The notes beneath the pieces were generated by a model that saw nothing but the letters and a program-made list of their open reading frames with translations, was not told the DNA's origin and did not search any database. From Candidatus Babeliales bacterium (GTDB lineage: Bacteria; Babelota; Babeliae; Babelales; JACPOV01): a stretch of DNA of 64,000 nt. Positions 5,285 through 55,289 of this stretch are shown here, in pieces. A program made the translations under genes and the position numbers. The stretch's first letter is position 1. Every line of letters begins with the position of its first letter. Location: positions 922 through 64,921 of the forward strand of contig JAGVLQ010000025.1 in the NCBI GenBank assembly GCA_020054235.1. The letters are read 5' to 3'.

Positions 5285-7620
5285 CAAGGTCCTTCTGAAA
5301 ATGAATACTTCCGATTTTTTAGCCAATTTTTAAACGCTTCAGGAATAGGTTTTTTTGATGCAAATTCAAATGTTTTATTTTTTGCAGTTGCTATTTCAAC
5401 CTGTGATGGAACTTTAGAACGACAATCACCAATTTTTTTATCATTCCATTCCATATTTTTACATTCAATAATTTTTTCGGCTGTTTCTATGTCTATATCT
5501 CTTTTGGGTTTGCCCGGCAATTGTACCTTCTCTCCAAACCTTATAACTTTTGAATTTTTTGATTCTCTCAAAGCAACTTCAACTTCGTATATTGCCCCAT
5601 TTACTGTCGACTGATGCGGGATATCTACAACACATTCCAGTAAAATTTTACTAACAGGGCCATCTTTATCTAAAAACCCTTCTACATCCTTAAATTTTTC
5701 TAGTGCTTCGATAATTATGTCTATTACTTCTTTACTAATACCCTTGGCTATGCCTTCTTTTAAAAACTCAATAACTTTTTCGCCATGGGTATCTACATCA
5801 ATATACGGTTGACCATTAACTCCTATAACCTCTGCCAACCTTTTTTTTGCTCTTTCTACATCCTCTTCTCGTCTTTGGCTCTCTTCACTTTTTTGAGGTC
5901 GCCATTTCTGTTTTTCAGGCTCAGCTGGCTTTTCTTCCGGCACATCAGGCGCTGGTTTATTTTTTTCTTGCTCTTGCGCATTTTCACTCAGTAAAGCACC
6001 CTGTATTTGCGTACCATAATTACAGCCTTGCTTCTGCTCCTGTTCTTGCGTTACTTCACAAGCTGGTGGCGTAGGAATTTCTTGTCCACCTTGTATGCAA
6101 ACGCCCTTTTGTTCAAATTCTTCAACGTCAACTATGCATTGCCCTTTTGGCACTTCAGGTTCTTTAATCAAACCGGTGCCACAGGGACGGTTTTTTTGTT
6201 CTTCTGCAATTTTTTGTCGCTCTTGGGCCCGCACTGATAAATAGTAATTAAAAAACGGTATGCCGTCTGGCACATTTTTTATTTCTTTTTTTGCTTGCTC
6301 AGAAAGCTCAGCCCACGCAGGGTCGCTTGCAAGTTCACGCCGGATACCATACGCATCAAACTTTTGGTTATAAAAATACGCAAAAATTTCATCTGCTACA
6401 GCGCTCTTTGCATCTCTTGCAATTCTGTTGGCTGTCTGAAAATTCTGCGCAAGGCAGCTTTCTATCACGGCCATTATTTTTTGGTTAGTAGCGTTATCGA
6501 TAACTTTGCTCGTTAGATGTGTCCATAAAAAATCACGGGCGACGTAAAATGCACGATACAAGGCATTAACTGTCTTATACCACCCTTGCTCATCAGCCAT
6601 ATCAAGTAACAAAGCAAACTCGTCAAGATCTAAATATTTGCCTAACTCCTCTCGCCATGCATCCCCATATTCTTGACGAAAATATTCAACAATCGGTCGC
6701 AAAGCTTTTACGGTAGAAATGGGCTCATTGGAAATCGCTCCTGTTCCATGATCAAAAAATAATGGTGCAAGCCAATACCGAATCTGATAAAGCCCACGAT
6801 TAAATTGCGCTGGTGCCCGTGTTGCAAAAAAAGTTTTAAGGGCACAGATTTTTCCTAGTGTAGCTGACTTGGCCACTGCATTTATAAGCGTGCGCATTTC
6901 CTCTTTGCACTGGCGGTCAATATCAACACGAAACTCTGGGTCATGGTCATAACGGTACTGCAAACGATGCTCGAGCAGTTCTTGCTCGGTTGCTCGGCGG
7001 TCAGGAAATGAATTTTTAAAACCTACTTGCGCGTAGACACGATGATTGCCAAGATTACATTCAGCCCGCGCAAAGCCTGGTCCGTTAATTATCTTGATTG
7101 TTTGCGGATTCGAAAATGCTGAAGCATCTAAGTAAACATCGGCAATGAGCGCAACGCCAGCTTCAAAAGGATTAGGAATTTCCACCTGTGCAACCTTTTT
7201 TTGTTCCGGTGTAAGTGGCGCACCAAGCTGTTGTTGCATAGATTGTTCAACTAAATCAGGAATACTAAAATTTTTGAAGGTATATGTTTCTGGTTGAGCT
7301 TGCGGTCTGCTTGCGCTGGGGGGGGTTACACTATGTTGTGCTGGATCATTTGGCATTGCTTGCACAGCAGAAATTTGCACGCAAGGCTTAGTTTCTTGGT
7401 TATGGACAGCTGGCTGGTAATGCCATTTTTCAATCTGCTTTTTTGCAACATATGCTGCAGCACCTGCAAACGCTAAAGCGGCTTGAGCACTCAAAACTAC
7501 TTGCTGCATAACCGGCGCTGCAACCGCCATTGATTCAATTTTGCGCTGAGATATAAAATCATTGAATAAAAATGCTATAAGAAAAACTAAAAAAAATCGC
7601 TTATGCTTTCTAAACTTCAT
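5284..7620 (-). CDS. large secreted multidomain protein with C-terminal PD-(D/E)xK nuclease-like module (candidate toxin/effector)
   Basis: The ATG at 7620 gives MKFRKHKRFFLVFLIAFLF; the track start 7644 is TTG. The central domain is shared with 1794..2714. A Cys-containing and PEK-rich linker follows. The C-terminus reads GAIYEVEVAL..VIRFGEKV..KRDIDIETAEKIIECKN, which places E, D and E-x-K in the canonical order. The coding call is strong; the nuclease call is moderate. Confidence 0.55.
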   Translation of the reverse strand: MKFRKHKRFFLVFLIAFLFNDFISQRKIESMAVAAPVMQQVVLSAQAALAFAGAAAYVAKKQIEKWHYQPAVHNQETKPCVQISAVQAMPNDPAQHSVTPPSASRPQAQPETYTFKNFSIPDLVEQSMQQQLGAPLTPEQKKVAQVEIPNPFEAGVALIADVYLDASAFSNPQTIKIINGPGFARAECNLGNHRVYAQVGFKNSFPDRRATEQELLEHRLQYRYDHDPEFRVDIDRQCKEEMRTLINAVAKSATLGKICALKTFFATRAPAQFNRGLYQIRYWLAPLFFDHGTGAISNEPISTVKALRPIVEYFRQEYGDAWREELGKYLDLDEFALLLDMADEQGWYKTVNALYRAFYVARDFLWTHLTSKVIDNATNQKIMAVIESCLAQNFQTANRIARDAKSAVADEIFAYFYNQKFDAYGIRRELASDPAWAELSEQAKKEIKNVPDGIPFFNYYLSVRAQERQKIAEEQKNRPCGTGLIKEPEVPKGQCIVDVEEFEQKGVCIQGGQEIPTPPACEVTQEQEQKQGCNYGTQIQGALLSENAQEQEKNKPAPDVPEEKPAEPEKQKWRPQKSEESQRREEDVERAKKRLAEVIGVNGQPYIDVDTHGEKVIEFLKEGIAKGISKEVIDIIIEALEKFKDVEGFLDKDGPVSKILLECVVDIPHQSTVNGAIYEVEVALRESKNSKVIRFGEKVQLPGKPKRDIDIETAEKIIECKNMEWNDKKIGDCRSKVPSQVEIATAKNKTFEFASKKPIPEAFKNWLKNRKYSFSEGP

Positions 7621-7814
7621 GCTGGACCTTTTTATAGGTAACAAAAACTTGCCTCAGCATATACCATCTGAACATAATTGAAAAGAAGATTTTTCAGAAA
7701 ATTTCTGGCGTGATCAATTAATAGAAATAGCACATTGCATAAAAATATTGCAAAATAAGCCTATTTATATATTCTAGAGATCAATTTACATAAAAAAATA
7801 AGGTTTAATAATCC

Positions 7815-13481: not shown

Positions 13482-14354
13482 ATGGGAAAGACTCAGATGT
13501 CTTGGGTATCTTTAATTATATGTCTTTGTTTTACTCTCTTAAGTTCTGAACATAAAGAACTTACAATACAAAATGTACGCACTGCTGTTATTGATAACCA
13601 AAAAAAACCATCAAAATCATTACAGCACCTTTTAAAAGAGTTAAATATTATCCATAATGATACGCTGACAGGAATAATTTTTGAAACTCAAAAAAAATGG
13701 TTACGGCCAAAAAATAAAGAACGCGGACAACTAAAAGATACGTTATTTACAAAAAAAGAATTTTGTATGCCGCTCTTTAAAAATATGGGCATGCTCGATC
13801 AAGTTCATCCTTCATTTACTGAATATGATTATGCACTCATTTTAGGGGTTGAAGTTCCATTATGGGCATACCAGCGAATATTTTTTTGTAAGCAGTTACT
13901 TGATCAAGGAAAAATTAATGTTAAACACTTGGTTATTCTTGCTTGCCAAAGACGTGTAGACCTCATATTTCCTGAATTGAAAACAGAAACTAATTTAATG
14001 AAATTCCTTTTGGAAAGAACGGGTTTACAAGAAAAAACAAAGAGCCTTCCAACGACGTTTATTAATTTACCCATGAAAAAAGAAAAAGAAAATCAAGAAA
14101 TACCACCAAGTACCCGCGACACCGTTCAACAATGGCTTGAGCAAAAGCCTAAGCCAGGAAAATGCCTTATTTTTTCCAATCAACCTTTTGTTGGCTACCA
14201 AGATGCGGTTTTGCAAGAAACTTTACCGGAAGGTTTTACCGTTGATACGGTTGGCTTAGCTCCTAAAGAAGGCGTTAATGGTTCACTCTACCTTGATACA
14301 CTTGCGCGTTGGTTATATGAAAAACAATTCGGTAACATTTCATCGAATTACTAG
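13482..14354 (+). CDS. hypothetical secreted protein, tandem paralogue B
   Basis: The ATG at 13482 follows GGAG (13471-13474). Signal-like N-terminus. Collinear similarity to 12491..13420. Confidence 0.7.
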   Translation: MGKTQMSWVSLIICLCFTLLSSEHKELTIQNVRTAVIDNQKKPSKSLQHLLKELNIIHNDTLTGIIFETQKKWLRPKNKERGQLKDTLFTKKEFCMPLFKNMGMLDQVHPSFTEYDYALILGVEVPLWAYQRIFFCKQLLDQGKINVKHLVILACQRRVDLIFPELKTETNLMKFLLERTGLQEKTKSLPTTFINLPMKKEKENQEIPPSTRDTVQQWLEQKPKPGKCLIFSNQPFVGYQDAVLQETLPEGFTVDTVGLAPKEGVNGSLYLDTLARWLYEKQFGNISSNY

Positions 14355-15628
14355 TTATAGGTCAACGCTAGATAAGGGGAATTTTTAGATTGATTCATTT
14401 GATCATTGAATTGATTTCCAAAATTTACTAAATTTTGAATCTGAGTAAAATTTTGCATTCCTTGTTTATCTTGTTTCTTTTTTCCTTTTATTTGGAGAAA
14501 ATCAGGCAACGGTCGGCTTGGGCCAACTGGATAAGTCAATTCTTGCAGCAAGGTTGGCCAATCTTCTGGATTACCACCATTCATCAAGAATACCATTTTG
14601 CACATTTTGAGCTTGGTATCCTGCTGCACATAGCTTACATTTTGCAATTGATTCCCAAGCTTCTTTAATTTGTTTTCTTGATTATCAAAAGAAGTAATAA
14701 AAAAACCTAGTTGCTGAGCAATTTCTTTTTTTAATTGTTCTTTTTGTTCATTATCAAGTTTTTGATTATTCTGTAAATCTTGAAGTTTTTTTTGTAACGC
14801 GAGCAATTGTTGTTCTGTATTTTCAAATGGGTCATTTAATTGTAATAAAATTTGTTGTATTGGTTGTAAATTTTGCATTTGATTTTGGCATGCACTTATC
14901 TGTTGTTCTGAAAATTGAGATAGATCTTGACTAAATTGATTGCTTTGTTCAGACAAAGTATGTTGTACCTTCTCAAAACCTACATTTGATGTTTGCAATA
15001 ACTCAGCAAATTGCTTTCCAAGTTGAACTATTCCTGATAAATTTTTAGAACTTTTCATCAAACCAAGAAACTCAAAATAATTGGTTTGCAACAAACTATT
15101 ACAGGTATCTACTACGTCATTCAATTCTAATTTTCTTAAATTGAGCTTATTAAGATGATCTTTCTGAATTTGATCTTGATTCTGATCAAATATATTTAGG
15201 CAATTTTCTATTTTACCTGTTTTTTGTTCAACATTTTGCAAATGATTTTGCACCTTACGTGCGTCATCGTTAAATTTTTTCTTTTCTTGCTCTAGCGCTT
15301 GCGCAGTAACACTTAAAAAACTGTCATACCATTGCTTGAGATCATGCTTGGTTAAAAATCCAAGATATTTGATGCTCGCTATAAAACCAACAAACGTTCC
15401 CAAGCCTAGTGCAGTTCCCCAAAAAACATCTTTATTAAAAATTAAGGCTAATGGATTGAAAGATTTACTCTGTCTAATTTCTTCTTTGACAGATTCTTTT
15501 ACTAATTTTTTAAGCAAAATAGGATCCAACAAAAGATTTCCCGACACCGGACTTTCCATAGAAAATAGTGAAAATTGGAAAACTGAAAAAATACCTGCAA
15601 GTAAAAGTACGCGTTTGTTATTTTTCAT
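14351..15628 (-). CDS. membrane-anchored Gln/Asn/Lys-rich coiled-coil protein
   Basis: Signal-like N-terminus, one further hydrophobic helix (ALGLGTFVGFIASIKYLGF), then about 300 aa of heptad-like Q/N/K/L-rich sequence. Confidence 0.65.
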   Translation of the reverse strand: MKNNKRVLLLAGIFSVFQFSLFSMESPVSGNLLLDPILLKKLVKESVKEEIRQSKSFNPLALIFNKDVFWGTALGLGTFVGFIASIKYLGFLTKHDLKQWYDSFLSVTAQALEQEKKKFNDDARKVQNHLQNVEQKTGKIENCLNIFDQNQDQIQKDHLNKLNLRKLELNDVVDTCNSLLQTNYFEFLGLMKSSKNLSGIVQLGKQFAELLQTSNVGFEKVQHTLSEQSNQFSQDLSQFSEQQISACQNQMQNLQPIQQILLQLNDPFENTEQQLLALQKKLQDLQNNQKLDNEQKEQLKKEIAQQLGFFITSFDNQENKLKKLGNQLQNVSYVQQDTKLKMCKMVFLMNGGNPEDWPTLLQELTYPVGPSRPLPDFLQIKGKKKQDKQGMQNFTQIQNLVNFGNQFNDQMNQSKNSPYLALTYN

Positions 15629-15636
15629 AGAATTCT

Positions 15637-16683
15637 CTAATCAATCTGCTCAACAAATAATAATTTTTTCTCACTAGTAATTGTTCTTACTTGATTAAAA
15701 AATTTATTATTTTTTAAATTCACCATAAAGTTCATTCCCTCATTTATTTTGTGAGCATTCTGGTTAAGAGAATTCACCTTTGGCAATAATTTATTTTTCA
15801 CAAATTTGTTGTTTTTCTTATTTTTTTTCGTAAGTTTGTCCAATACCAATTGCAATGTTTTTAAGTCTTGATTAAATGTATTACTACGTTCATCCTGCGA
15901 TTGAGCAAATTGATTAAATAACCTAGAAAATTGTTCGATAACTTGCTGTTGTTCGAATTGTTTTTTTAATGCATCCTGCGCGCCAATTTGCAATTGCCGA
16001 ATCTGTTCTTTAACCTTTTTTTGCTCGCGCTGCAGTTTTTCTTGAGCCTCATTTAACTGTTGCAATTCCTTTTGATAGTTTTTTTGTATTTGGTCAGAAA
16101 GTTTGAAAAAGTTTTGATTAAAATGCTTTACAAGATCGTCTTCGTGTTTTTGAATATTTTCTAGTTGTTGGGCAATGTTGCTTTGATATTTCTTAAATTC
16201 TTCGAGCATAGATTGATAGTGCTCAGAAATGCTCTTTTTTAATTGAGCTTCAACAATTTTTATATTTTTACCAAGGCCACTGATAGCTTGACCAACCTCT
16301 TCATCTTGCTTGCTTCTTTTTTGAACCATGTTTTTAAAATTTTGGTCAAAATTGTTCACCTGGTTTTCAAGCTTTTTTCCTTGTTCTTCTAATGTTTCCA
16401 TTCCCTTTTTACGTATTTCTCTTAATTGCTCAAATTGAGTTTTTTGAGATTTCTCTATTTCGTCGGTAAAATTTTGAAACTCTTTTTTTGAAACAGGCCA
16501 CGCACGGTCCCGTAACCATTCGGGTGAAAAAAAGAATAAAATACCCAAGACTGAAGCACATGATAATTTAAAACTTGAAAGCCCCATAAAAAAAGAAAAA
16601 AAATCCAGAACATGCGCTTTCAAAGAAGAAGTAAACGCAAATAAAATAATGCACATTAGTTTTTTCAGATCGAAAATTTTCAT
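15637..16683 (-). CDS. membrane-anchored Gln/Glu/Lys-rich coiled-coil protein
   Basis: Same architecture as the downstream gene: signal-like N-terminus, hydrophobic segment, long coiled-coil-like tail. Confidence 0.65.
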   Translation of the reverse strand: MKIFDLKKLMCIILFAFTSSLKAHVLDFFSFFMGLSSFKLSCASVLGILFFFSPEWLRDRAWPVSKKEFQNFTDEIEKSQKTQFEQLREIRKKGMETLEEQGKKLENQVNNFDQNFKNMVQKRSKQDEEVGQAISGLGKNIKIVEAQLKKSISEHYQSMLEEFKKYQSNIAQQLENIQKHEDDLVKHFNQNFFKLSDQIQKNYQKELQQLNEAQEKLQREQKKVKEQIRQLQIGAQDALKKQFEQQQVIEQFSRLFNQFAQSQDERSNTFNQDLKTLQLVLDKLTKKNKKNNKFVKNKLLPKVNSLNQNAHKINEGMNFMVNLKNNKFFNQVRTITSEKKLLFVEQID

Positions 16684-16785: not shown

Positions 16786-17904
16786 TTAGACCCCAATTCT
16801 TATTTTTTTTTGGACTTTTTGCGACATGGCAATTTTTTTATTCTGTTGCATGCTCATTTTATGCATAAGATGATAAAAAAATTCACGGTCAGGGCCTTTG
16901 ACAACCGCTTGTTCATGCGCTTCGGCAATAGCAATTGGATAACCATAGCCTTTTTGCACTTGATTGGCAATTATTGCAGCAACGTTATCAACCAAATGCT
17001 GGTCATATGCAATCCAGGCAGGAATTTCTATGCGAGCAATTTCATTACCAAAATCTGCATAAAAAAAATGAGGACGAGAATGTTTTGGATAGTAGGCCGT
17101 TACGGGACTTTGGTTTTCAAAAACAATAGAGCGTGAAAATGGTTTTAAAAAAAAGCGTGCAATGGAAGCATCGACAAGATGATCAAGTTTATTATAATCT
17201 TCACATTGCGAAACATTAAAATTACATAATTGCAAGCGCAATAAATTCACTAACTCTTTGCTTTTGGGCAAACTAATGTAGCCAGCATATAAAATATTTT
17301 CTTGGTAAAACTGATCAAGTGATTGCAAGTAGCGACATAAAAAGTAATCTTTTACTTCAACTTCTTTTGCTTGCAAATGCCAAAAAATCAGCGAGCCATC
17401 GAATAACAATACAAAAGGAATAGTTGGTTGCTGTGCAATAATTTTTTTGCTTAATTCTAAACCTAGATCGAGTTCAAGTTCTTGACGCCTACAATTAACT
17501 AAATCAGTCGTTAAATCAAAGTCATGTTCATCAGGATATACAAAGGGCTGTGTTGAAAGCTGCGCTCCTTTGCCTGACACGCCATAAGAAAGGTCAACCA
17601 TGCCAATGTTCACTAAAAAGCATGCTGTGCCCTGATGGCGGTCTGGATAAATTTGTGAACCATCAACGGAAGCAACCGTATATGGTTTTTCAAACGGTTG
17701 CAAGGAATAAATCTTGTCCAAGGTTTCTTGCCAAGCAGGAACTAAAAGTTGTGTAGACGCTGCTTTTATTTTCTGATCAAAATACTGATCTGCTACAATT
17801 TGTTGCCAAAGCATTTTAGCAAGAGAAAGTTCATCAGAAAGGTCGACAAAAAGTTTTTCACTGACTTGATTTATTGCTTGGAAAAGTTTGGTACGATCAA
17901 GCAT
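16786..17904 (-). CDS. NurA-domain nuclease-like protein
   Basis: VASVDGSQIYPDRHQG (the DGS motif of NurA-type nucleases) and the C-terminal GYGYPIAIAEAHEQAVV block, as I recall for bacterial NurA-domain proteins. Its start overlaps the sufU stop by 8 nt. Confidence 0.5.
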   Translation of the reverse strand: MLDRTKLFQAINQVSEKLFVDLSDELSLAKMLWQQIVADQYFDQKIKAASTQLLVPAWQETLDKIYSLQPFEKPYTVASVDGSQIYPDRHQGTACFLVNIGMVDLSYGVSGKGAQLSTQPFVYPDEHDFDLTTDLVNCRRQELELDLGLELSKKIIAQQPTIPFVLLFDGSLIFWHLQAKEVEVKDYFLCRYLQSLDQFYQENILYAGYISLPKSKELVNLLRLQLCNFNVSQCEDYNKLDHLVDASIARFFLKPFSRSIVFENQSPVTAYYPKHSRPHFFYADFGNEIARIEIPAWIAYDQHLVDNVAAIIANQVQKGYGYPIAIAEAHEQAVVKGPDREFFYHLMHKMSMQQNKKIAMSQKVQKKIRIGV

Positions 17905-18562: not shown

Positions 18563-18730
18563 TTAGCGTAACGAGGCGATACATCCAAACTCATCGAACC
18601 TATAGCGCTCATTGAGTAATCTTTCCTTTTTTCCAGGCCTCCATGGACAATCAGCCTTCTTGCTATATTGGCAATTCCTGTTATCCTTAAAAAGATTGCT
18701 ATTACCGCTAAAATCTGCTCTGGAGGCTTT

Positions 18731-19564
18731 ATGAAAACCGTTTTCCGATCTAAATTAATTTCTATTTGTGTATTATTTTCAATCCTAACTTCAACACTTT
18801 TTCCTGCAAACCTTATTTTTGACATGGAAGGCGTTTTAGTCAAACGAAGTAAGCTTTCAGCCTGCTTGAATATCGGCCTGAGCAAATTTTTAGGACTTTA
18901 TAATCCGTTAAACATAGAACAAAAACTTTTCGATTTTCTTAACCTTCTTATACCTCGCAATCCAGAATCACCTGAAGTTATTAACAATGGTAAAGTATTG
19001 CCACAAATTATGTGCGATTGGCTAACCGGCGATAAAACCACTGAAGAAATCCGTGCCATTGTTGAACTAGGCCTAGAAAAGCATGATTCCTTTTTTACTA
19101 CCAATAGCCAAAAAGGACTAATTGCTGCTATGGCGGAGTTTATGTTCACACCGGAAAGACTCATCAAAGCAATTTATCCGGTCAAAGATGCTGTAAAATT
19201 AGTAAAAAAATGTCATGGAAAAACAGACAAAAACGGACACAAAAATCGCATTTTTATTCTGACTAATTGGGATGCAGAATCCTTCCCGCTTTTATATCGC
19301 ACAAAAGCACTACGCCATCTTTTCCAACGGGCTGATGGGATTGTTGTTTCCGGCAGCGTGCATCTTCTAAAGCCTGATCCCACAATTTTTGCCTACCTTT
19401 GTGATACGTTCACCATTGATCCGGAAAAAGAACTCACTGTTTTTGTTGATGACACCTTAGCAAATTTGCAACCCGCTAAAGAGTTTGGCATTCATACAAT
19501 TCATTGCCAAAATACAAATATTCATGCAGTTAAAAGAGAGTTCAAGAATCTCGGTGTTCTTTAA
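18731..19564 (+). CDS. HAD-superfamily hydrolase with N-terminal signal/anchor
   Basis: The ATG at 18731 follows GGAGG; the track start 18668 is an extension. HAD motifs: I LIFDMEGVLV, II ILTNWD, III LLKPDP, IV FVDDTLAN. Confidence 0.75.
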   Translation: MKTVFRSKLISICVLFSILTSTLFPANLIFDMEGVLVKRSKLSACLNIGLSKFLGLYNPLNIEQKLFDFLNLLIPRNPESPEVINNGKVLPQIMCDWLTGDKTTEEIRAIVELGLEKHDSFFTTNSQKGLIAAMAEFMFTPERLIKAIYPVKDAVKLVKKCHGKTDKNGHKNRIFILTNWDAESFPLLYRTKALRHLFQRADGIVVSGSVHLLKPDPTIFAYLCDTFTIDPEKELTVFVDDTLANLQPAKEFGIHTIHCQNTNIHAVKREFKNLGVL

Positions 19565-19572
19565 TCTAAAAA

Positions 19573-20150
19573 ACCTCACGGCCCTATGCGGGCAGCACTA
19601 GATGTTTTGCTTGCCCAAAACATCTAGGACTAAAAGGGCACATAAGAGAAGGTTCTCTTATGTATCTCTCTACGCTCGTAACTCGGCCCTAATTTTAATA
19701 AAATTGAGGGCCTCAAACAGTGACGAGCTAATAATGTTAAAATTTCCTATTTATTCATTTCTTTATTCGGTAGCGCTCGAATAGTTCGCTATCGCTCATC
19801 TCTCGCAGAATTAAATTAATTTTTTTTCGTAGAAAAAATAATTTTGACTCGCGATTCTTCGACGAGCTCAGAATGAGCGGAATACATACCTTTTTCGCTT
19901 GCCCGCCATAGCTTTAGCGACGGCTGGGAGCGCTTCAAAATAAAAAAAATGACTAAATAAGATGTTTTTAACTTTTTTAGCTCGCCCTGTATGAGCGTTC
20001 TCAATTTTTTCTAAAAAAAAAATTAGAATGCGAGTTCGAGCGTACGGCAATCCAACAGCATGTTGGTGTATTTTTTGTCCAGCATTTTTTGTACAAGCAA
20101 AAAATACTGGTGCTGTGCGCAGAGCACCGAGAGATTTTAAAATGAAGTAA
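19573..20150 (+). repeat. copy 1 of a hairpin-rich noncoding repeat of about 0.55 kb (candidate structured RNA or nonautonomous element)
   Basis: Aligns end to end with 54717..55255 in the same orientation, except for an inverted central module. Multiple conserved or covarying hairpins. The track ORFs inside are not conserved between copies. The strand of any transcript is unknown. Confidence 0.8.
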
Positions 20151-20194
20151 TGTTCAAGTTTCAAAGAAAAAAAGAAAAAAAATTTTTTAAAAAA

Positions 20195-20992
20195 CTAGAC
20201 GTAATCCACTTTCTTTTTAAAAAAGTAGCACGCTAAAAAATAACAGAGTATCGAGAAAAAAAGTAGCGCAGCAACAACACTTGGTAATGAAAAGAACTTG
20301 TCTCCGCCAATAATAGCTGTTCTGATTCCTTCCGTAATATACAATAGCGGATTAAATAACGACACCGCACCAAGCAACGTTGAATATTTAACCATAACTG
20401 ACCAAGGGATAAATAAGCCACCGAGTGTAATCATCGGGTTATTAAAGCGCATCCAAAAGTTGCCGATTTTTTGCGTACTTTCAATAAAACATACCATGAA
20501 CATATTAAAAGCTGCACAAAAAAGTGAGCCAAGCAGCAACACCAGTATTAATGCCGGCCAAGAGAGCGCTGCTGCATAAAAATAGCTACCCAATAAAATG
20601 TTGGCAATAGGATAAAACAGCACCACCGACAAAAAAGTAATAACGGTAGAAAAGACAATTTTTTGCAGTAAAATTAGTGGCGGGTCAAGCGTTATCATTT
20701 GGTAATCAATAAAACGATCATGCTCAAGGTCAAACAACAAATCCAAGTTAAGTAAAAAAGCTAAGGGAAACATGCTCCACAAAATACAGCCAACAAAAAA
20801 AGTGGTTGTTTGCACCGGTGTTGGATTGATCATATTACTATTGGGCAAAAAGTAGCCAAACGCAATGGTCATAGTTATCGGTACAATCGTACCAAAATTT
20901 ATTAAGATGCGCCGCCAACTAGTGCGAAAGACATAAAAGTCACGCATCAAAAAATAACCAAAAACATGCACTCGGTGCATAATGGTATTCAT
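20195..20992 (-). CDS. ABC-2 type transporter permease
   Basis: The ATG at 20992 follows GAGGA; the track start 21010 is TTG. Six hydrophobic helices. Paralogous to the upstream permease. Located in an operon with the ABC ATPase. Confidence 0.75.
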   Translation of the reverse strand: MNTIMHRVHVFGYFLMRDFYVFRTSWRRILINFGTIVPITMTIAFGYFLPNSNMINPTPVQTTTFFVGCILWSMFPLAFLLNLDLLFDLEHDRFIDYQMITLDPPLILLQKIVFSTVITFLSVVLFYPIANILLGSYFYAAALSWPALILVLLLGSLFCAAFNMFMVCFIESTQKIGNFWMRFNNPMITLGGLFIPWSVMVKYSTLLGAVSLFNPLLYITEGIRTAIIGGDKFFSLPSVVAALLFFSILCYFLACYFFKKKVDYV

Positions 20993-20994
20993 AG

Positions 20995-21792
20995 TTATCC
21001 TCGCACCCAATCAAGGCGTTGTAATAAAATGGTTAGCAATAAACCAATACACAAACTAGAAAAAAACCAAATAACCGCAAAACAAATCCACACTGAAATA
21101 AAATGACCACCGCCCAATAAGCTTGCACGCAACCCTTCCACGCAATAGGTCATGGGATTAAATAACAATGCTGATGCAAATAATGGCGAAAAGGCATACG
21201 CTTTGCTCCAGGGATAAAATAAACAACCAAGCAAATGGAGCGGGGATAAAACGCGCTGCCAAATATTAAACTTGAACCATTCAAATGAAACAGCATATAC
21301 CAATGACGAAAAAAATGCTGAAAGCAAAAGCATAACCCCGCAGTAAACACCAATAAAAGCAAACCAATTGGCAGCTGAAAGGTCAAGGCGTGCGCCAAGC
21401 ATTATTTTGCCCATAATTAAAATTGGCAATGTTGTGCACAAACAATGTAATGCATAACTTGCAACCTGCGCTCCTAAAAACCAGCGATTGCCAATAGGCA
21501 AAATTCTCCGGTAATCAATAAAATATGAAAATTCTCGATCAGCCAAATCATTAATTGCACGCGAGAAACCTACAAAAAGTATGCTGCCTATAACGGTCCC
21601 TAAAAAGGTTGAAGCAACGAGCTTCGTGTCAATTCCCACGAGCGGGCCAAGCGAACCAAAAACAAAATTGAAAAAAAATACCGTAATACCGGTATTGATC
21701 AAATCATCCCACAGACGCTTGAGAATAATTACGCGCATATCACGCGCAATCAATTGGTAGGCAACCAACACATTTTGTTTAAGGCTGTTCAT
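20995..21792 (-). CDS. ABC-2 type transporter permease
   Basis: Polytopic membrane protein that overlaps the ATPase gene end by 14 nt. Confidence 0.75.
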   Translation of the reverse strand: MNSLKQNVLVAYQLIARDMRVIILKRLWDDLINTGITVFFFNFVFGSLGPLVGIDTKLVASTFLGTVIGSILFVGFSRAINDLADREFSYFIDYRRILPIGNRWFLGAQVASYALHCLCTTLPILIMGKIMLGARLDLSAANWFAFIGVYCGVMLLLSAFFSSLVYAVSFEWFKFNIWQRVLSPLHLLGCLFYPWSKAYAFSPLFASALLFNPMTYCVEGLRASLLGGGHFISVWICFAVIWFFSSLCIGLLLTILLQRLDWVRG

Positions 21793-23504: not shown

Positions 23505-24074
23505 CTAAAATGGCAGCACACCTAATTTTTGTAATAACCAATAAGCACTAAAGCCTCCAACAAAGGTCATAGTATATTTCAGTAGTGGTGAATTGCCGAA
23601 TCCGTTATATTTATTTAAGCTGGTTGGTTTATTTTCAGTCGATTCTTCACTTGCTTTGCTCATCTGTCTTAATTGTTTTCTTGACTCAGTCGATTCGCAC
23701 ATCTGTCTTAATCGTTTTCTTAAGTTTGTCAGTTGTACAGAATCAAAGCTTAGTAATGCAGCACCTTCTTGTGCAGGAATAGGACTAATTGCTGTAACAT
23801 TTTCTAGAAATGCACAGAACGCACCGACAAATTGTTGCTCCTTTTGACGTGGTGTCAAATTTCCTGTAATCGTAGGTATATTTAATGCACGATGTTGGCC
23901 AAGTACGTCTAATCCTTCATGAGCTTTTTGATTTATTTTGAGTACATTCAGTAGCATTGATGGTTTTTTTTGTTCTGTTTGTTGATTTTCAATTTCTTGC
24001 AACTGATTTTCATCCATTGCCCACAAGGCGCCTGAACTGAGCGTAAGTAAACTTAATAAGAAAAGTTTTTTCAT
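23505..24074 (-). CDS. hypothetical secreted protein with C-terminal hydrophobic anchor
   Basis: Signal-like N-terminus and a C-terminal hydrophobic segment. Contains an internal approximately 15-aa duplication, RKRLRQMCESTES / RKQLRQMSKASEES. Confidence 0.6.
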   Translation of the reverse strand: MKKLFLLSLLTLSSGALWAMDENQLQEIENQQTEQKKPSMLLNVLKINQKAHEGLDVLGQHRALNIPTITGNLTPRQKEQQFVGAFCAFLENVTAISPIPAQEGAALLSFDSVQLTNLRKRLRQMCESTESRKQLRQMSKASEESTENKPTSLNKYNGFGNSPLLKYTMTFVGGFSAYWLLQKLGVLPF

Positions 24075-26699: not shown

Positions 26700-27389
26700 T
26701 TACTCAAGTGGAGCAGTGGGTTTAATTTTTTTTATCACTAGTGGCACTAATGCTACACAAGCAAGTAATGTCAATGCAATAATCATGGGCCACGATAAAA
26801 TATCCGATGCTTTTTCAAGCGTCATCAATTGCTGTCCAGCAAAGGCATAAATAAAGGACCCTGGCGCAATACCAACCATGGTTGTCCAGACAAAGGTCCA
26901 CCATGAAACACTTGATAAACTAGAAATAATAATAATTATTAGAAATGGCGTAATTGGCAGCAACTGCATAAATAATAAATAACTTGCACCTTGCTTTTGA
27001 AATTGTGCATTAAATTTTTGCAAGGAATTGCCATAACGATGTTCCACCGCAGCGCGCAACAAATAACGAAAAGTAAAAAAAGAAAGCGTAGCACCCAGCG
27101 TAGAACCTAAAATCGCATAAACCGCACCAAGAATTGTCCCAAAAAAAAAGCCGCTTGCTAACGTTAAAAACGGTGTTACGGGAATTGCAAGCATTACGGT
27201 TGCAGCAAAAATTCCAATAAGGGATAAAACAGAAAATCCATAAAATTCTTGAATAAAATTTTGGACAAGCAAACTATCTTTGCGTATTGCCTCCAACGTA
27301 AAATAGTTATGGATACCTAAAATACGCAAAAGAATTATAATGCCGATTAGTGCCAGACCAATTAAAAGACGTTTTTGTATTGCTTTCAC
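26700..27389 (-). CDS. TVP38/TMEM64 (DedA-superfamily) membrane protein, tandem paralogue
   Basis: GTG start preceded by AAGG. Collinear with the upstream paralogue (FLTLASGFFFGTILGAVYAILGSTLGATLSFFTFRY). Confidence 0.75.
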   Translation of the reverse strand: MKAIQKRLLIGLALIGIIILLRILGIHNYFTLEAIRKDSLLVQNFIQEFYGFSVLSLIGIFAATVMLAIPVTPFLTLASGFFFGTILGAVYAILGSTLGATLSFFTFRYLLRAAVEHRYGNSLQKFNAQFQKQGASYLLFMQLLPITPFLIIIIISSLSSVSWWTFVWTTMVGIAPGSFIYAFAGQQLMTLEKASDILSWPMIIALTLLACVALVPLVIKKIKPTAPLE

Positions 27390-30457: not shown

Positions 30458-33400
30458 TTAGTTTTCTTTTACAAACTCAACCAAATCTAGTAAAGACTTA
30501 TCCGAACCAGAAGATATATCAACCACGAGCCTTGGTTTTATACCTTTTTCTTTAAGAGTATTGTTGAAAAGATTATAATCTTCAACCTTAAGTTTTGCTT
30601 GAGAGTATAAAAAAAATAATCGTGTGTAAATATCACTAATGCATAGATATATAATTTGATTTTCACATTTCTGATCTTTAACTTCTAGCTTTTTGATGAT
30701 TGGTACCATATTTTTGATAATTTCTTGGGCTTTGATACCAGAATTATCAAAAGCAATTTCATGGGCATACTTTATACATTGAGCTGTTAGATTAATTTTT
30801 TCATCCTGCGATGAACATAATTTTTGAATAAAATTGCGTAGATCAATACTCTCGTTTGACTGAGGAGATGCTGTTTGCATAAGGGTTGTTAAATAATCAA
30901 AATATGCAATCAGGACCATACCATGTTCTGTTGTTATCTTCATTGAAGATAATAACTTTACTTTTAATATTTGATCCCAAATATCTCTTCTTCGCTGCTC
31001 ATGGCAAGCTACCAACGTCTTTTCTAAATAATTTAAAGCTTCAACAGGAGACTCATCGCTCAAAATTACTGTTTTATATAAATTAGCTATCGGATGATTG
31101 ATAAGCAAATCATGTTGAAAATATTTGAGTGCATTCGGTAAATTACCGCTATAAATAGAACATTGACCCAGTTCTATAAGAGCTTCACTATTTTTTGGGT
31201 CGAATTTAAAAGCATCTGTGTAATATTTTTTTGCTTTTTTTACAAAGCGAACATCAGAATTACCACTAGCTAAACCATTTAAATATCTATGTTTCCAAAT
31301 ATTGCCTAACATTACTGCTGCTTGAGAATCGCTCTGCTTATAAGCAAGATTCAAGTACTGCATCGCTTTTTCTTCATCACGCACTATCTTTTGATAACAA
31401 GCAGGAAAAGCGGCTCCTTCCAAATAAAAATTAGCAAGATATTTTAAAATTTCTACATTTTTATTATTGGCTGCAGATTCTAAAATAGCCATTCCTTTTT
31501 TGAATGCACTATTAGGATCTATACCCGGTTTATTATCAAAATAAAATTCAGCAAAGTTTTTAATCATAGCTTCAGAACTCGGATTAAGATCTATTGATCG
31601 TTGATAAAATTTTATTCTATTTTCAACAGAAAGATTTTCTAGTTGAGCCACTGAATGATAAAGACTTGCAACCAATTCAGACCTTTTATTAGCAGTTTGA
31701 AGATCCAAGTTTGGAATTTCTAATGCATTTTTAAGCAAACGATCTATTTCATTGCAATAATCTAATAGGTCAAACTCCTTGTCAAAAAAATTCAACTCTT
31801 TTTTTGCAATCGATAAAAGCGCAAATCCAAGTACATAAGAAGCCAAATATGACCTTTTTTGATATTCTTGAATAATATTAAACATCTCTTTGATATGCGG
31901 CAAATCTGAATTTTCGAGAGTTTCTTTATTCATATGATCTTTAAACAACTGAAATATTCTAGGACTAGACCCTATAAATAGCGCACTATCCGTACTTTTT
32001 TTAAACCTTTCATATTCAAACTTAATTAGCTCTTTGGCAAAAACACTATCTTTTCTAGCAAAATCATATAACAATTCAGCAGATTCTTGCAAAAGATTTA
32101 GGATATCAAAACTGTTAGCAAAATCAGGTAGAACAAAAAACTCCTTAAAATATTTTAACGCCTTAAATATATCCTTTTCTATACCATTTCCTTTTGCCAA
32201 CAAAAGACCAAGATGACCCAGCGCATACTTATTACCAGCTTCATGTGCACGTTCAAACCATGTATATGCTTTTGTATATTCACCCATCAACTTACACGCT
32301 AAAGCAAATTCATAGCATGCCGTGGGATTATTTTTTTCAAGCTCCTCTTTTAAACTAAGCTCTATATTTTCACAATTTATGGATAAAGCTCTTTTTTCTA
32401 ATTTTGCTAACATAGATTCAGCATAAAGCGTATGACTCAGTAAAGGTTTTTCTACTTTTTTTAAAAGCTCTATGATTTCAGATTTTTTCAAAGAACAAAT
32501 AGCTTCTTTATTTAAAAAGATATTGGCAATTTCAAGAACCGCGTTGATATCATAGGGTGCAGCAGAAATCAAAAAATCAAATCCATTTTTAATATCAAAA
32601 TGCTGATGCAACAAACCATGGCCAATATGAAATTCACAACGACTCTTTGTCTCATTAGAAAATTTAGCTAAATACTTTTTAACATTTTCAAAGTCCTTTT
32701 GAACAAAATAGTATTTCACCAACTTCTTAAAAACTTCGTCTGCAAACAATGTATTGCTAAAACAGTTATCAATTTTTATCGCCTTTTCAAGGGATGATAC
32801 AGCCAACATAACTTTCTCAAGCTTTTTTTTAGAATCTTTTTGAGAAATTGAATCAGCATATACCTTAGCTGCATAAAGATATGCAATCGCAGCATTACTA
32901 TTCTTAAGTCTTTCATAATCTTGATTGTTATAAGGATTTAATCCAGCATCTCCTGCGCAGACAAAAAAGTCTGAAACCTCTTCTGGCTTATGATATTGCA
33001 ATAAAAAAGAAAAAATTGCTGGCGCCAGATCACTTTTTGGCTCATTATGCACTATTTCCTGCGCTTCTTTTTTTATATCAACATCTTTACTTCTAGCCAT
33101 CAAAAGGCAAAGCTGAATGAAAGCTTCAGGAATTTTATCATTATCTTTTTTACCAAAAATTGATTTTAATACTTTTAATCTAGCTCCTTCATGCCCCTCT
33201 TGAGCAGCTTGCCTTAAAAAAGAATGACCATTTTCTAAATCTCCATTTTCGTAAAACAGCAATGCTATTTTATAAAAAACTTCATGAATAAAATATTCAT
33301 ACCACTCAGGACCATCTACCTTTAAAGTCATTTCTTTTAATTTTTCAAATATCGGCTGATGAAAATAAAAACGTTGTTTTAACACTAGTCGTGAATAATC

Positions 33401-34072
33401 TAAACCAAGCTGCTGAGTTCTTTTAAACTCTTCTGGGCTCAAAATCTCAAAGATGGAGGAACGCTCATCACTATTTTTACATAGACGGGGAAAACGCTCC
33501 CTTTCTTTATTATATTCTTGTTGGGTTTCAACAGGTTTCTTGTAAGGATACCAGACGCTTGCCGCACATCCCTTTTGCCAGGATTTCCCTGCATTCACTA
33601 GATCATTTTCTTCATAATACATATCTCCTAAAAACTCTTTTGCTAGTGGGTGGTACGACATTTCATAATACATTTTTGCCTCACCTCTGTTACCATCGGC
33701 TTGGTATAATTCACCTAAAAGACCTTGTGCAAAAGGATGTGGATTTTGGGCTGAAGCATTATTTCTTAGCTTCTCAAGCCCTTTCTGTTTAGTTTCAGAT
33801 TTTTGAGTCAAAATATAAGCCCTTTGTAATTCATCATTTTTTGGATGGTCTGCAGCAATAATCTTGTTAAATTCTTCAAAACTCATGGAAGCATCATTAG
33901 TGAAGATTTTTTTTTTGCTTAAATCTGTTTGCGCAAAAACCGGCTTGGCCGTATTCTGCCTTAAAACCGTTTGATGGCGTGAAGATTTTTTTTTCTTTTT
34001 CTTGTTCCCTGCTTGCGTAGGAAAAACAACTAACGAAATAAAAACTGCTGCAATTGCTAATTTTTTATGCAT
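30458..34072 (-). CDS. giant secreted Sel1-like/TPR repeat protein (1204 aa)
   Basis: Signal-like N-terminus followed by GNKKKKKKSS. Clear Sel1 units, for example WFERAHEAGNKYALGHLGLLLAKGNGIEKDIFKALKYFKE. Confidence 0.8.
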   Translation of the reverse strand: MHKKLAIAAVFISLVVFPTQAGNKKKKKKSSRHQTVLRQNTAKPVFAQTDLSKKKIFTNDASMSFEEFNKIIAADHPKNDELQRAYILTQKSETKQKGLEKLRNNASAQNPHPFAQGLLGELYQADGNRGEAKMYYEMSYHPLAKEFLGDMYYEENDLVNAGKSWQKGCAASVWYPYKKPVETQQEYNKERERFPRLCKNSDERSSIFEILSPEEFKRTQQLGLDYSRLVLKQRFYFHQPIFEKLKEMTLKVDGPEWYEYFIHEVFYKIALLFYENGDLENGHSFLRQAAQEGHEGARLKVLKSIFGKKDNDKIPEAFIQLCLLMARSKDVDIKKEAQEIVHNEPKSDLAPAIFSFLLQYHKPEEVSDFFVCAGDAGLNPYNNQDYERLKNSNAAIAYLYAAKVYADSISQKDSKKKLEKVMLAVSSLEKAIKIDNCFSNTLFADEVFKKLVKYYFVQKDFENVKKYLAKFSNETKSRCEFHIGHGLLHQHFDIKNGFDFLISAAPYDINAVLEIANIFLNKEAICSLKKSEIIELLKKVEKPLLSHTLYAESMLAKLEKRALSINCENIELSLKEELEKNNPTACYEFALACKLMGEYTKAYTWFERAHEAGNKYALGHLGLLLAKGNGIEKDIFKALKYFKEFFVLPDFANSFDILNLLQESAELLYDFARKDSVFAKELIKFEYERFKKSTDSALFIGSSPRIFQLFKDHMNKETLENSDLPHIKEMFNIIQEYQKRSYLASYVLGFALLSIAKKELNFFDKEFDLLDYCNEIDRLLKNALEIPNLDLQTANKRSELVASLYHSVAQLENLSVENRIKFYQRSIDLNPSSEAMIKNFAEFYFDNKPGIDPNSAFKKGMAILESAANNKNVEILKYLANFYLEGAAFPACYQKIVRDEEKAMQYLNLAYKQSDSQAAVMLGNIWKHRYLNGLASGNSDVRFVKKAKKYYTDAFKFDPKNSEALIELGQCSIYSGNLPNALKYFQHDLLINHPIANLYKTVILSDESPVEALNYLEKTLVACHEQRRRDIWDQILKVKLLSSMKITTEHGMVLIAYFDYLTTLMQTASPQSNESIDLRNFIQKLCSSQDEKINLTAQCIKYAHEIAFDNSGIKAQEIIKNMVPIIKKLEVKDQKCENQIIYLCISDIYTRLFFLYSQAKLKVEDYNLFNNTLKEKGIKPRLVVDISSGSDKSLLDLVEFVKEN

Positions 34073-34093
34073 AACCTATTTTTCCTTAACTTT

Positions 34094-45610: not shown

Positions 45611-45697
45611 TGGTGCCGAGGACCGGACTCGAACCGGTACAGACAAAAGTCCGAAGGATTTTAAGTCCTTTGCGTCTACCTATTCCGCCACCTCGGC
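45611..45697 (-). tRNA. tRNA-Leu (anticodon UAA), CCA encoded
   Basis: The reverse complement gccgaggtggcggaataggtagacgcaaaggacttaaaatccttcggacttttgtctgtaccggttcgagtccggtcctcggcacca folds as a class II tRNA. Acceptor GCCGAGG/CCTCGGC, anticodon loop cTTAAaa, long variable arm, T-arm accgg-ttcgagt-ccggt. Confidence 0.95.
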
Positions 45698-45770
45698 ATC
45701 ACAAGATATGATAAAATATGATTACTTAATATGCCTTATTTTTAGGCAAAATAAAAGATTTTTTTTGAGC

Positions 45771-45844
45771 TGGAGGCGGCACCCGGATTCGAACCGGGGA
45801 TCAGGGATTTGCAGTCCCATGCCTTACCACTTGGCTATGCCGCC
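45771..45844 (-). tRNA. tRNA-Cys (anticodon GCA), CCA encoded
   Basis: The reverse complement is ggcggcatagccaagtggtaaggcatgggactgcaaatccctgatccccggttcgaatccgggtgccgcctcca. Acceptor GGCGGCA/TGCCGCC, anticodon loop ctGCAaa, T-arm cccgg-ttcgaat-ccggg. Discriminator U, as expected for Cys. Confidence 0.95.
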
Positions 45845-54582: not shown

Positions 54583-54716
54583 AAAAAAACCTTTCAGGCT
54601 ATTCTTTTAGTTTAGCCACAATGGGTTCTTACTTCAATAATACAAATTTATTATCTTTAATTTTCTATTTTTTTAATTCAAACATTTTTATACAAATGAG
54701 ATTAATCAAAGCATTT

Positions 54717-55255
54717 TCTCTCACGCTCCTCATGCCGGTGAGGCACAAAGGTATTGCCTGCCCAATACCTTTGATACAAGGGCACATAAGAGAAGAATCT
54801 CTTATGTAACTCTCTGCGCTCGTAACTCGGCCCTAATTTTAATAAAATTGAGGGCCTCAAACAGTGACGAGCTAATATGGCTTTAAACATCTTAGTTATT
54901 CATTCTTTTATTCGGTAGCGCTCGAATGGGAAGTTTTTCTTGCGAAAAACTTTGCTCTCGCGAGTCCAAATTATTTTTTTCTACGAAAAAAAATTAATAA
55001 ATATCGCGAGAGACAAGCGTAGCGAGCTATTCGAGCGCTTCAAAATAAAAAAAATGGTTAAATAAGACATTTTAACCTAATTAGCTTATCTGTATGAGAC
55101 TCTGAATTTTTACTGGTAAAAATTAGAGGCGAGTTATAAGCGTACGGCAGTCCAGCAACATGCTGGTGTCTTTTTTATCCAATATTTTTTAGACAAGTAA
55201 AAAATATTGGTGCCGTGCGCAGAGCACCGTGAGATAAAATAATTAAAATGAATGT
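54717..55255 (+). repeat. copy 2 of the hairpin-rich noncoding repeat of about 0.55 kb
   Basis: Aligns with 19573..20150. The central module 54928-55028 is bounded by the perfect 11-bp inverted repeat agcgctcgaat / attcgagcgct and is inverted relative to copy 1. Confidence 0.8.
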
Positions 55256-55289
55256 ACGTTTTTAAAAAAATTTAACTTAAAAACTTTCT

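Follow-up and report, generated by a model that had tools for sequence, protein, structure and literature searches.

A candidate family of nested-palindromic (foldback) DNA repeats in Candidatus Babeliales

Background

[quoted passage not shown] Repetitive extragenic palindromic (REP) units are 20-40 bp in length, carry GTAG or CGTC heads and are associated with RAYT transposases. Parvovirus inverted terminal repeats (ITRs) are large palindromes with small side-arm palindromes, a tip found in flip and flop orientations and symmetric recognition motifs. The palindrome-associated elements derived from the insertion sequences (ISs) of the IS200/IS605 group have sub-terminal hairpins on the same strand and lack terminal inverted repeats (TIRs). 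To our knowledge, the Dependentiae (Babeliales) are uncultured or amoeba-dependent and their non-coding DNA is essentially unexplored. The subject of this analysis is an intergenic element found twice in 64,000 nt of a Candidatus Babeliales bacterium (assembly GCA_020054235.1, contig JAGVLQ010000025.1, positions 922 to 64,921; hereafter the window, in whose numbering coordinates are given). According to PMC10969869, MITEs, to which it is compared below, are typically shorter than 500 bp, end in TIRs of 4-30 bp, occupy intergenic sites rich in AT, form stable stem-loops and are flanked by direct repeats that erode with age.

The two occurrences, copies 1 and 2 (Table 1), were initially picked out from the letters of the window as a two-copy non-coding element with covarying hairpins, either a large structured RNA or a set of DNA hairpins read by an enzyme encoded elsewhere. 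We assign a probability of about 0.5 to the reading that they belong to a family of DNA repeats in Candidatus Babeliales that are nested palindromes (foldbacks), do not code for protein and are non-autonomous. With the same even odds, the family would act at the DNA level as a mobile, MITE- or BIME-like foldback (BIME: bacterial interspersed mosaic element) that is recognized when folded by a factor encoded elsewhere. The pairing on which the original prediction was based stands; of its two interpretations, the new evidence favours DNA hairpins and weakens the RNA. No description of the family was found, as there is no Rfam match and nothing relevant in the literature searched.

Results and discussion

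Structure of the element

The two stretches are homologous and lie at about the coordinates first proposed: MAFFT alignment of 19540-20200 with 54680-55300 gives a column identity of 82%. A 55-nt block (19674-19728 and 54818-54872) is identical in the two copies and occurs nowhere else in the window, in agreement with repeat finding; zero chance matches to it are expected from shuffles. Both copies are intergenic, as stated previously. Copy 1 lies between convergent genes for a HAD hydrolase (18668-19564, +) and an ABC-2 permease (20195-21010, -), and copy 2 between a 303-aa open reading frame (ORF; 55290-56201, -) and plsC (53857-54582, -). All six loci of the family are intergenic and three of the positions are between convergent genes. 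The ORFs listed earlier inside copies 1 and 2 are present and have no reading frame in common. The longest of them (62 aa, within copy 2) has no relatives in the protein collection searched, and no further copy came to light there through miscalled ORFs.

Each copy is a single nested imperfect palindrome that folds equally well on either strand, rather than the set of independent hairpins first described. Minimum-energy folding pairs the two halves of a copy with each other as one long interrupted foldback, of which the named hairpins are side branches. Copy 1 has fold z-scores of -11.5 (+) and -14.7 (-), and copy 2 has scores of -13.4 (+) and -13.1 (-); a third copy, from the contig L013 introduced below, has z = -7.2 (one strand only, folded with ~110 nt of flanking sequence).

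Each end of the element is an inverted arm of ~70 nt. From outside to inside, this arm consists of a terminal repeat (TCTCWCGG), a small hairpin H0, a hairpin H1 and a junction (AAGGGCA or AAAAATACA). The element ends are set by the terminal inverted repeat, and their predicted pairing is found: TCTCACG(G/C) pairs with CCGTGAGA or its equivalent at 7/8 positions in copy 2, at 7/8 plus one G.T in L013 and at 6/8 in copy 1. H1 has a freely covarying stem of 10-12 bp and an 8-nt loop, GCTTGYMC. Nine comparable arms are obtained by reading each end from outside to inside. Because the H1 loop has the same orientation in 9/9 of these, the arms are true inverted repeats of ~70 nt. The hairpin called H5 in the original prediction corresponds to the right-arm H1, and H6 corresponds to the H0 of that arm.

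The arms enclose a conserved core that is asymmetric: H2, a linker and H3 make up one side, H4 makes up the opposite one, and an apex is in the middle. H2 has the form ACATAAGAGA-N3-4-TCTCTTATGT, and the linker consensus is ATCTCTCTRC. The outer stem of H3 (GCTCGT/ACGAGC) surrounds CTCAAACAG, and its inner hairpin is wholly different between genomes. Within the window, the cataagaga and gctcgt..acgagc hairpins have the same sequence in both copies, as had been noted.

Family members in other genomes

The element is not confined to two copies, as was first thought; relatives are present in at least three other Babeliales genomes. Homologues of the neighbouring PlsC and ABC-2 genes assign the window to Candidatus Babeliales (Dependentiae/TM6); the contigs of relatives were reached via these genes and the members were located by blastn. 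In all, about four genomes supply three full copies and three partial ones. L013 (GCA_050250855.1) has a complete 396-nt copy (6013-5618) at another locus, where it is flanked by heparinase and FkbM-methyltransferase genes that converge on it. In L017 (JGI 3300022690), a copy directly after the ABC-2 gene (3166-3486) is cut by the contig end. L016 has the first 30 nt of the element at the copy 1 (ABC-2) locus, L010 (Logan SRR28401850) has its left 120 nt upstream of plsC, which is the copy 2 locus, and the L014 contig begins inside the element. Short-read contigs terminate within the element in four cases (L010, L014, L016 and L017), which means that it breaks short-read assemblies of these genomes. 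An exact PlsC match was found in one 1-kb contig only, which diverges before the element; for the topoisomerase and one further protein of the window (P0121), exact look-up returned no record.

Both window loci have filled and empty orthologues. The plsC locus is filled in the window and L010 (PlsC 86% identical) and empty in L011 (81%), L012 (70%) and L013 (70%). The ABC-2/HAD locus is filled in the window, L016 (81%) and L017 (77%). In L021 (61%) a 4-nt overlap of the two genes leaves no room for an element, and in L018 (62%) the ABC-2 locus has a 225-nt spacer that lacks one.

Truncated arms lie beside two of the relatives. In L013, a stub comprising the terminal repeat, H0 and half of H1 (6014-6058; score 39, shuffle maximum 20) abuts the left terminal repeat of the full element. 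The sequence TGTACAAAA is found on both sides of this element, with its right-hand occurrence offset 7 nt beyond the end; the arrangement could be explained by the insertion of this element within an older arm, accompanied by duplication of 9 bp. In L010, two stubs (TCTCACGCACCCCATGCCGGTGAG and TCGCTCGGTGCTCTGCGACA) lie outside the left end (165-290), in tandem and in the same orientation as the full left arm (scores 38 and 30, shuffle maxima 22 and 27), which suggests repeated insertion plus decay at one site. No arm stubs were seen in the flanks of the window copies.

Searches for further copies added no members. Scans of metagenome and viral collections gave 0 matches, and blastn against plasmids and phages gave none. 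Eight matches to CGCTCGTAACTCGGCCCT in genome contigs (L001-L008) were discarded as chance matches in high-GC genomes. A covariance model, which had been suggested for the whole copies, was built for H1 only. It finds the known arms and no new ones in 226 kb, apart from one 24-bit match (27254-27281, -; E-value: 0.005) inside a VTT-domain gene (26700-27389) that is probably due to chance.

The empty plsC site of L011 has a small terminator-like hairpin of its own (AAGGGAGCGCT..AGGAGCGCTCCCTTTTTT; 215-256). Its GGAGCGCT resembles the AGCGCT that bounds the apex of the element, which may be coincidence.

Inversion of the apex and core

Contrary to what had been described, the copies cannot be aligned over their whole length in a single orientation. 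A central 83 nt of copy 1 (19772-19854) matches copy 2 (~54958-55039) only as the reverse complement (local score 110, versus 36 for the direct match). The apex is thus seen in two orientations in two different copies, and in copy 2 it is bounded by an exact 11-bp inverted repeat. The adjoining ~70 nt of copy 1 (19855-19928) is extra sequence that is not in copy 2 and appears as an indel in the MAFFT alignment.

The core is also found in two orientations relative to the same neighbouring gene. The H2 side faces ABC-2 in L017 and L016, whereas the H4 side faces it in the window. The terminal repeat variant and H0 type beside ABC-2 are the same in the window and L017, and an 18-nt junction read from the ABC-2 side (ATTTTAAAATCTCTCGGT) is identical in L017 and copy 1. 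Because the ABC-2-side terminus is shared, sequence comparison favours an inversion of the interior in place, by which the core would have been turned at this locus. Independent insertions could also have produced the opposite core orientations, and the L016 arm type at ABC-2 differs from that of the window and L017. The right-arm H1 of L017 is 95% identical to the left-arm H1 of L013; arm modules have therefore been swapped between sides and occur in more than one genome.

A degenerate form of the H1-loop motif (GCTTGCCC) recurs at 19897-19904, within the extra apical sequence of copy 1. It has no stem paired around it and resembles a piece of another arm.

Covariation and pairing

The H1 alignment contains nine hairpins and is gap-free, one bulged C having been taken out of the right arm of L013 (L013R). 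Standard pairs fill 93.9% of its cells, compared to 65.9% in shuffles. Both sides have changed in 9/11 pairs (24 double-changed cells), and sliding the register lowers the paired cells to 33-58%. The observed pairing or covariation score is reached by 0/500 shuffles, a count that is not a probability. As the arms are paralogues and come from so few copies and genomes, the covariation counts do not represent independent events.

The remaining stems behave similarly. H0 has at least five covarying versions among the arms (CCC/GGG, CCT/AGG, TGC/GCA, TCC/GGA and CCCC/GGGG). H4 has two compensated changes (CCAGCA/TGCTGG in copy 2 and CCAACT/AGTTGG in L017). The H3 outer stem changes from G-C to A-T in L013 (GCTCAT/ATGAGC) and L017 (GCTCA/TGAGC), while its inner hairpin is swapped for unrelated hairpins in both. 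H2 has one symmetric change, C-G to A-T, in L017. The homologue of copy 1 H6 (GGTGCT..AGCACC) in the left arm of L017 is the hairpin GGTCCT..AGGACC, which differs from it by a compensated change from G-C to C-G. The claim that the H1, H4, H5 and tct..aattttt stems differ in sequence between the window copies and retain their pairing is therefore borne out, as is the premise that pairing is conserved through compensatory change.

Pairing is maintained in these stems, yet its character is unusual for RNA. G.U pairs make up only 1/99 cells of H1, and H0, H2, the H3 outer stem and H4 are entirely Watson-Crick. Whole-element folds of four copies contain 36 G.U pairs on the + strands and 41 on the - strands, and so reveal no strand preference. 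Helices with covariation support, as in structured RNAs generally, are present. A single functional strand with a fixed order and orientation of modules is not, judging from the G.U counts and the inverted apex and core.

These data bear on the possibility that the element is a Babeliales-specific large (0.4-0.56 kb) structured RNA gene or a cis-acting mRNA segment. The hairpins would then be selected RNA helices, with the H1 loop and the core as binding or tertiary-contact sites, and the - strand would be read at copy 2, as it is in both neighbouring genes. The strong H1 covariation, the compensated changes in H0, H2, H3 and H4, the conserved loop on variable stems and a core that is well conserved despite saturated synonymous sites (see below) agree with such an RNA. 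So do the slightly more stable folds of the - strand and three transition mismatches in H1/H5 stems (copy 1 H5, L010 H1 and L017 H1), all of which, by eye, are A.C on the + strand and G.U on the - strand. Terminator-like hairpins with T-runs also occur within the element, on the + strand at H4 (copies 1 and 2 by scan, L013 by eye) and on the - strand at H6 (the two window copies only). However, the strand asymmetry is not significant, either in the G.U counts or in the 3/3 direction of the mismatches, and no promoter-like site common to the copies was found. The near absence of G.U pairs from the covarying stems also argues against RNA. The arm stubs and the filled and empty sites are typical of mobile DNA, and a fixed H2 stem with a free loop is what a double-stranded site for a protein would show, rather than an RNA hairpin.

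Database searches are also unfavourable to an RNA. In the whole window, the only Rfam matches at the gathering threshold are two tRNAs, and no match at that threshold was obtained to RNase P, tmRNA, 6S, SRP, ROOL, GOLLD, OLE, HEARO, raiA or group I/II introns. At E ≤ 10, copies 1 and 2 have scattered sub-threshold matches only, which differ between the copies; the best are to MIR821 (38 bits, threshold 249) and AaHKsRNA69 (31 bits, threshold 43). The element is thus not recognized as RNase P, tmRNA, SRP or 6S, in line with the original prediction, and the Rfam comparison recommended there yields no significant match to a known family. An RNA would, moreover, have to accept inversion of its apex between copies and of its core relative to the neighbouring genes, which a defined fold would not tolerate. 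An RNA is therefore judged unlikely.

Conservation of the core

Third codon positions in neighbouring genes of the window are 43-47% identical to those of L013 or L017, near saturation for their composition. A core of 57 nt, extending from the junction through H2 and the linker into the start of H3, is nevertheless 82-93% identical in all five copies compared, from four genomes. Since the core is conserved while synonymous sites are saturated, either purifying selection or recent spread is required. Within H2, the stem sequence is conserved and the loop varies freely (10-4-10).

This conservation is also what would be expected of a host cis-acting DNA site, which might be a cruciform-prone platform, located between transcription units, for a nucleoid, topoisomerase or recombinase protein, or an invertible switch with a recombinase encoded elsewhere. 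Gyrase and IHF bind BIMEs in E. coli and offer an analogy. The palindromic H2 with its variable spacer resembles an operator for a dimeric protein, and the core is conserved beyond neutral expectation. Two nested segments occur in both orientations, the inner one bounded by the exact 11-bp inverted repeat. The strictly intergenic location, three times between convergent genes, and the six occurrences of GCTCG/CGAGC in copy 1 (counted by eye) fit such a site as well. Set against these features, no recombinase or regulator gene is adjacent, the positions are not conserved across Babeliales and have empty orthologous sites, the arm stubs suggest insertion and decay, and the H1 stems are too variable for a sequence-specific duplex-binding site. 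We regard a host site of this type as quite unlikely. Two particular recombination sites were considered and rejected. H2 has the CATAA..TTATG of a dif/Xer-like site, but its spacer is 12 nt and not 6-8. H1 is not lox-like, as its arms vary and its spacer is conserved, the opposite of recombinase core sites.

It is very improbable that copies 1 and 2 are a decaying, unconstrained duplicate whose apparent covariation arose by chance or by mutational self-correction of a palindrome. Quasipalindrome template switching can create compensated changes without selection (PMC7202029). However, the core and the H1 loop are conserved although third codon positions are only 43-47% identical, the observed H1 pairing is absent from the shuffles, and the same architecture is found in four genomes.

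Evidence for and against a mobile DNA element

A repeat that acts at the DNA level is favoured for several reasons. The apex is inverted between copies and the core is flipped relative to the same neighbouring gene. The arms are inverted homologues, stubs lie beside full copies, and at orthologous sites the element is present in some genomes but absent from others. The stems are near-purely Watson-Crick, G.U counts do not differ between strands and both strands fold equally well. Finally, assemblies break at the element.

Other observations weigh against a mobile DNA repeat. Pfam analysis of 48 window ORFs revealed no transposase, recombinase, reverse transcriptase or HUH domains, consistent with the earlier statement that none lies in or beside either copy, and no transposase, recombinase or HUH gene is in the precomputed Pfam lists of the fetched loci. 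In the window and ~160 kb of fetched Babeliales loci, no larger or autonomous element with the same termini was found. No consistent target-site duplication was found, neither copy 1 nor copy 2 has a direct repeat common to its two flanks, and the TGTACAAAA pair of L013, with its 7-nt offset on the right, is the only candidate. The 64 kb of the window contain just two copies, and L021-L023 contain none. Conservation is higher in the core than at the element ends, which is an unusual pattern for a MITE, and covarying stems with a conserved loop, as in H1, are also expected of an RNA hairpin. At the ABC-2 locus the element is retained in three lineages whose third codon positions are 47-54% identical and thus close to saturation. 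This persistence points to purifying selection, possibly for a host function.

Proposed model

The model for a mobile foldback repeat is the following. The element would spread or persist as DNA. Its hairpins would be extruded when it is replicated or mobilised, either in single strands or as cruciforms. A separately encoded factor, namely a transposase, nickase or recombinase, would recognize three features alike at both ends: the terminal repeat, the loop of H1 and the palindromic core formed by H2. The nested inverted repeats would permit flip-flop inversions, through recombination or replication template switching, and template switching would also help the stems to stay perfectly complementary. 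In a 3' untranslated region or operon spacer, the transcript of the element would fold into a long hairpin, probably acting as a terminator or RNA-stability barrier. Such a role is regarded as a side effect and not as the reason for conservation.

The maintenance of the hairpins and the conservation of the H1 loop suggest that the folded form, whether single-strand or cruciform, is what this factor recognizes. Template switching at quasipalindromes has been documented as a source of mutations by which inverted repeats become more perfect (PMC7202029), and we infer that it is a route to the compensated changes and inversions seen here. A more specific version of the model, which we consider doubtful, is that the folded single strand is itself functional and that the H1 loop GCTTGYMC, presented at each end, is read by the factor, with the H1 stem at liberty to covary. 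The element would then represent a new hairpin-intermediate mobile DNA or a Dependentiae-restricted RNA class of 0.4-0.56 kb. If so, it would be either mobile DNA with parvovirus-like flip/flop of its tip or an RNA, and not a degenerate IS derivative.

Compensatory change in hairpins is the usual signature of RNA genes. That it can also arise in a DNA palindrome with a flipping interior is a warning for RNA-discovery pipelines. If the loops and core are recognition sites, they provide a handle on a new mobilisation or DNA-structure-binding system in this phylum.

Coordinates and other features of the window

The positions of the features of copies 1 and 2 are listed in Table 1.

Table 1. Features of the two window copies of the foldback element (window coordinates).
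Feature	Position	Strand	Basis or remark
Copy 1	19574..20135 (562 nt)	.	Terminal repeat to terminal repeat; aligns with copy 2; single long interrupted foldback
Copy 1 left terminal inverted repeat, CCTCACGG	19574..19581	+	6/8 pairs with right end; family consensus TCTCWCGG
Copy 1 left-arm H0 (CCC-TATGC-GGG), then CAGCA	19582..19597	+	Covarying versions among arms
Copy 1 H1, 11-bp stem and conserved 8-nt loop GCTTGCCC	19598..19627	+	Covariation over 9 arms; covariance model 46 bits (training sequence)
Copy 1 conserved core: junction AAGGGCA, H2 (19640-19663, ACATAAGAGA/TCTCTTATGT), linker ATCTCTCTAC	19628..19673	+	Cross-genome identity
Copy 1 H3, GCTCGT/ACGAGC enclosing inner GGCCCT..AGGGCC	19674..19728	+	Identical in copy 2
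Copy 1 central (apical) region, bounded by AGCGCTCGAAT (19772-19782) and degenerate AGCGCT (19929-19934)	19772..19934	.	
Copy 1 H4 (CCAACA-GCA-TGTTGG), then + strand T-run	20052..20066	+	Covaries; terminator-like
Copy 1 H5 (right-arm H1), loop GCTTGTAC (- strand reading)	20079..20110	-	Covariance model match 20080-20109, 39 bits
Copy 1 right-arm H6 (GGTGCT..AGCACC), then T-run on - strand	20109..20128	-	Homologous to L017 left-arm hairpin
Copy 1 right terminal inverted repeat, CCGAGAGA	20127..20134	+	Pairing with left end
Copy 2	54719..55235 (517 nt)	.	Alignment with copy 1; foldback z-scores
Copy 2 left terminal repeat, TCTCACGC	54719..54726	+	Pairing with right end
Copy 2 H1 (CAAAGGTATT-GCCTGCCC-AATACCTTTG)	54745..54774	+	Stem type also in L013 left arm and L017 right arm
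Copy 2 H2 (54784-54807) and H3 (54818-54872)	54784..54872	+	
Copy 2 central region, perfect 11-bp inverted repeat AGCGCTCGAAT (54917-54927)/ATTCGAGCGCT (55029-55039)	54917..55039	.	
Copy 2 H4 (55152-55166), H5 (55179-55210) and H6 (55209-55228)	55152..55235	.	
Copy 2 right terminal repeat, CCGTGAGA	55227-55234		

The genes that Pfam recognizes among the 48 window ORFs scanned are housekeeping genes, encoding the SUF system, DnaJ, topoisomerase I, NurA, ABC transporters, VWA/BatD proteins and large TPR proteins. Because of this gene content, and because the gene order at the copy 2 end is that of L013 and L023, the 35 kb between the copies is unlikely to be a composite transposon or island.

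The tRNA-Leu(TAA) and tRNA-Cys(GCA) genes (45611-45844, -) are the sole RNA genes that Rfam or ARAGORN identify in the window. The NurA-domain nuclease gene (16786-17904, -; also L021:13367-14467) adjoins NifU and is conserved in these Babeliales. The ORFs beside it in the window (14351-15628 and 15637-16683) lack Pfam matches, so that a HerA partner could not be recognized. A pair of neighbouring and very large ORFs (1204 and 1511 aa; 30458-38629, -) with weak TPR matches only is located between a SufS-like aminotransferase gene and the SufD/SufB genes. Two direct-repeat blocks (1864-2447 and 6221-6804; 300 nt at 74% and 156 nt at 71%, 4357 nt apart) are contained in ORFs 1794-2714 and 5284-7644, both of which lack a Pfam match; the blocks are probably paralogous domains of the encoded proteins. 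A tandem 39-nt repeat (23647-23724; two copies, 79% identical) is contained in ORF 23505-24074, also without a Pfam match.

Comparison with known systems

The large Rfam RNAs (ROOL, GOLLD, OLE, HEARO/omega RNA and raiA) are similar to the element in size (0.4-0.6 kb), intergenic location and number of covarying hairpins. Unlike these, it has no covariance-model match, folds equally on both strands, has inverted modules and pairs essentially by Watson-Crick pairs only. It also differs from the IS200/IS605-derived elements in having terminal inverted repeats and in carrying its end hairpins as inverted arms, one on each strand. A site-specific invertible switch would have a segment that is bounded by inverted repeats and found in both orientations, with a recombinase gene inside it or adjacent. 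In the element, the copy 2 apex is bounded by an exact 11-bp inverted repeat, the two orientations are in two different copies and no recombinase gene is nearby.

Parvovirus ITRs offer a mechanistic analogy only. Both have nested palindromes, an asymmetric tip found both ways and motifs at both ends. The element, however, is a chromosomal bacterial repeat and not a linear single-stranded DNA end, no Rep/HUH gene was found, and its inversion could equally be ordinary recombination between inverted repeats.

REP and BIME sequences have palindromic units that alternate in orientation and are intergenic, at 3' ends or between convergent genes. Their folded DNA is thought to be recognized by an enzyme encoded elsewhere, with secondary effects on termination and mRNA stability (in part from PMC3733652). 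The element shares the arrangement and location, and would share the recognition and secondary effects. Its H1 units are 30 nt in length and, unlike REP units, start with CTAG, CAAA, CCAG or TCAG, and no RAYT or Y1/HUH transposase domain occurs in the scanned ORFs. Unlike a BIME, it is a single large nested palindrome with defined termini and not a tandem cluster.

Compared to MITEs, the element is of a length (396 nt in L013, 517 nt for copy 2, 562 nt for copy 1) that reaches or slightly exceeds the customary limit, and it encodes no transposase. Its core outconserves its ends, conserved loops sit on covarying stems and nested segments occur in both orientations, all of which distinguish it from MITEs. 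The findings named earlier as marks of an ordinary MITE, namely clear target duplications and an autonomous IS with the same termini, were not made at the loci inspected; a MITE may lack the former, since such repeats fade with age. Relevant to mobility are the two copies in the 64-kb window, the filled and empty orthologous sites, the arm stubs next to full copies and the one locus common to three lineages. Like MITEs such as Coxiella QMITE2 and pneumococcal BOX/SPRITE, the element is non-coding, lies in AT-rich intergenic DNA, often at gene 3' ends, and has TIRs (6-7 of 8 positions paired, in the range of ~4-30 bp). It folds into a stable stem-loop on either strand (z -7 to -15) and shows presence/absence polymorphism, and, like BOX, its build is modular and mosaic. 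Among described systems, the element is closest to bacterial MITEs and to mosaic elements of the REP/BIME type.

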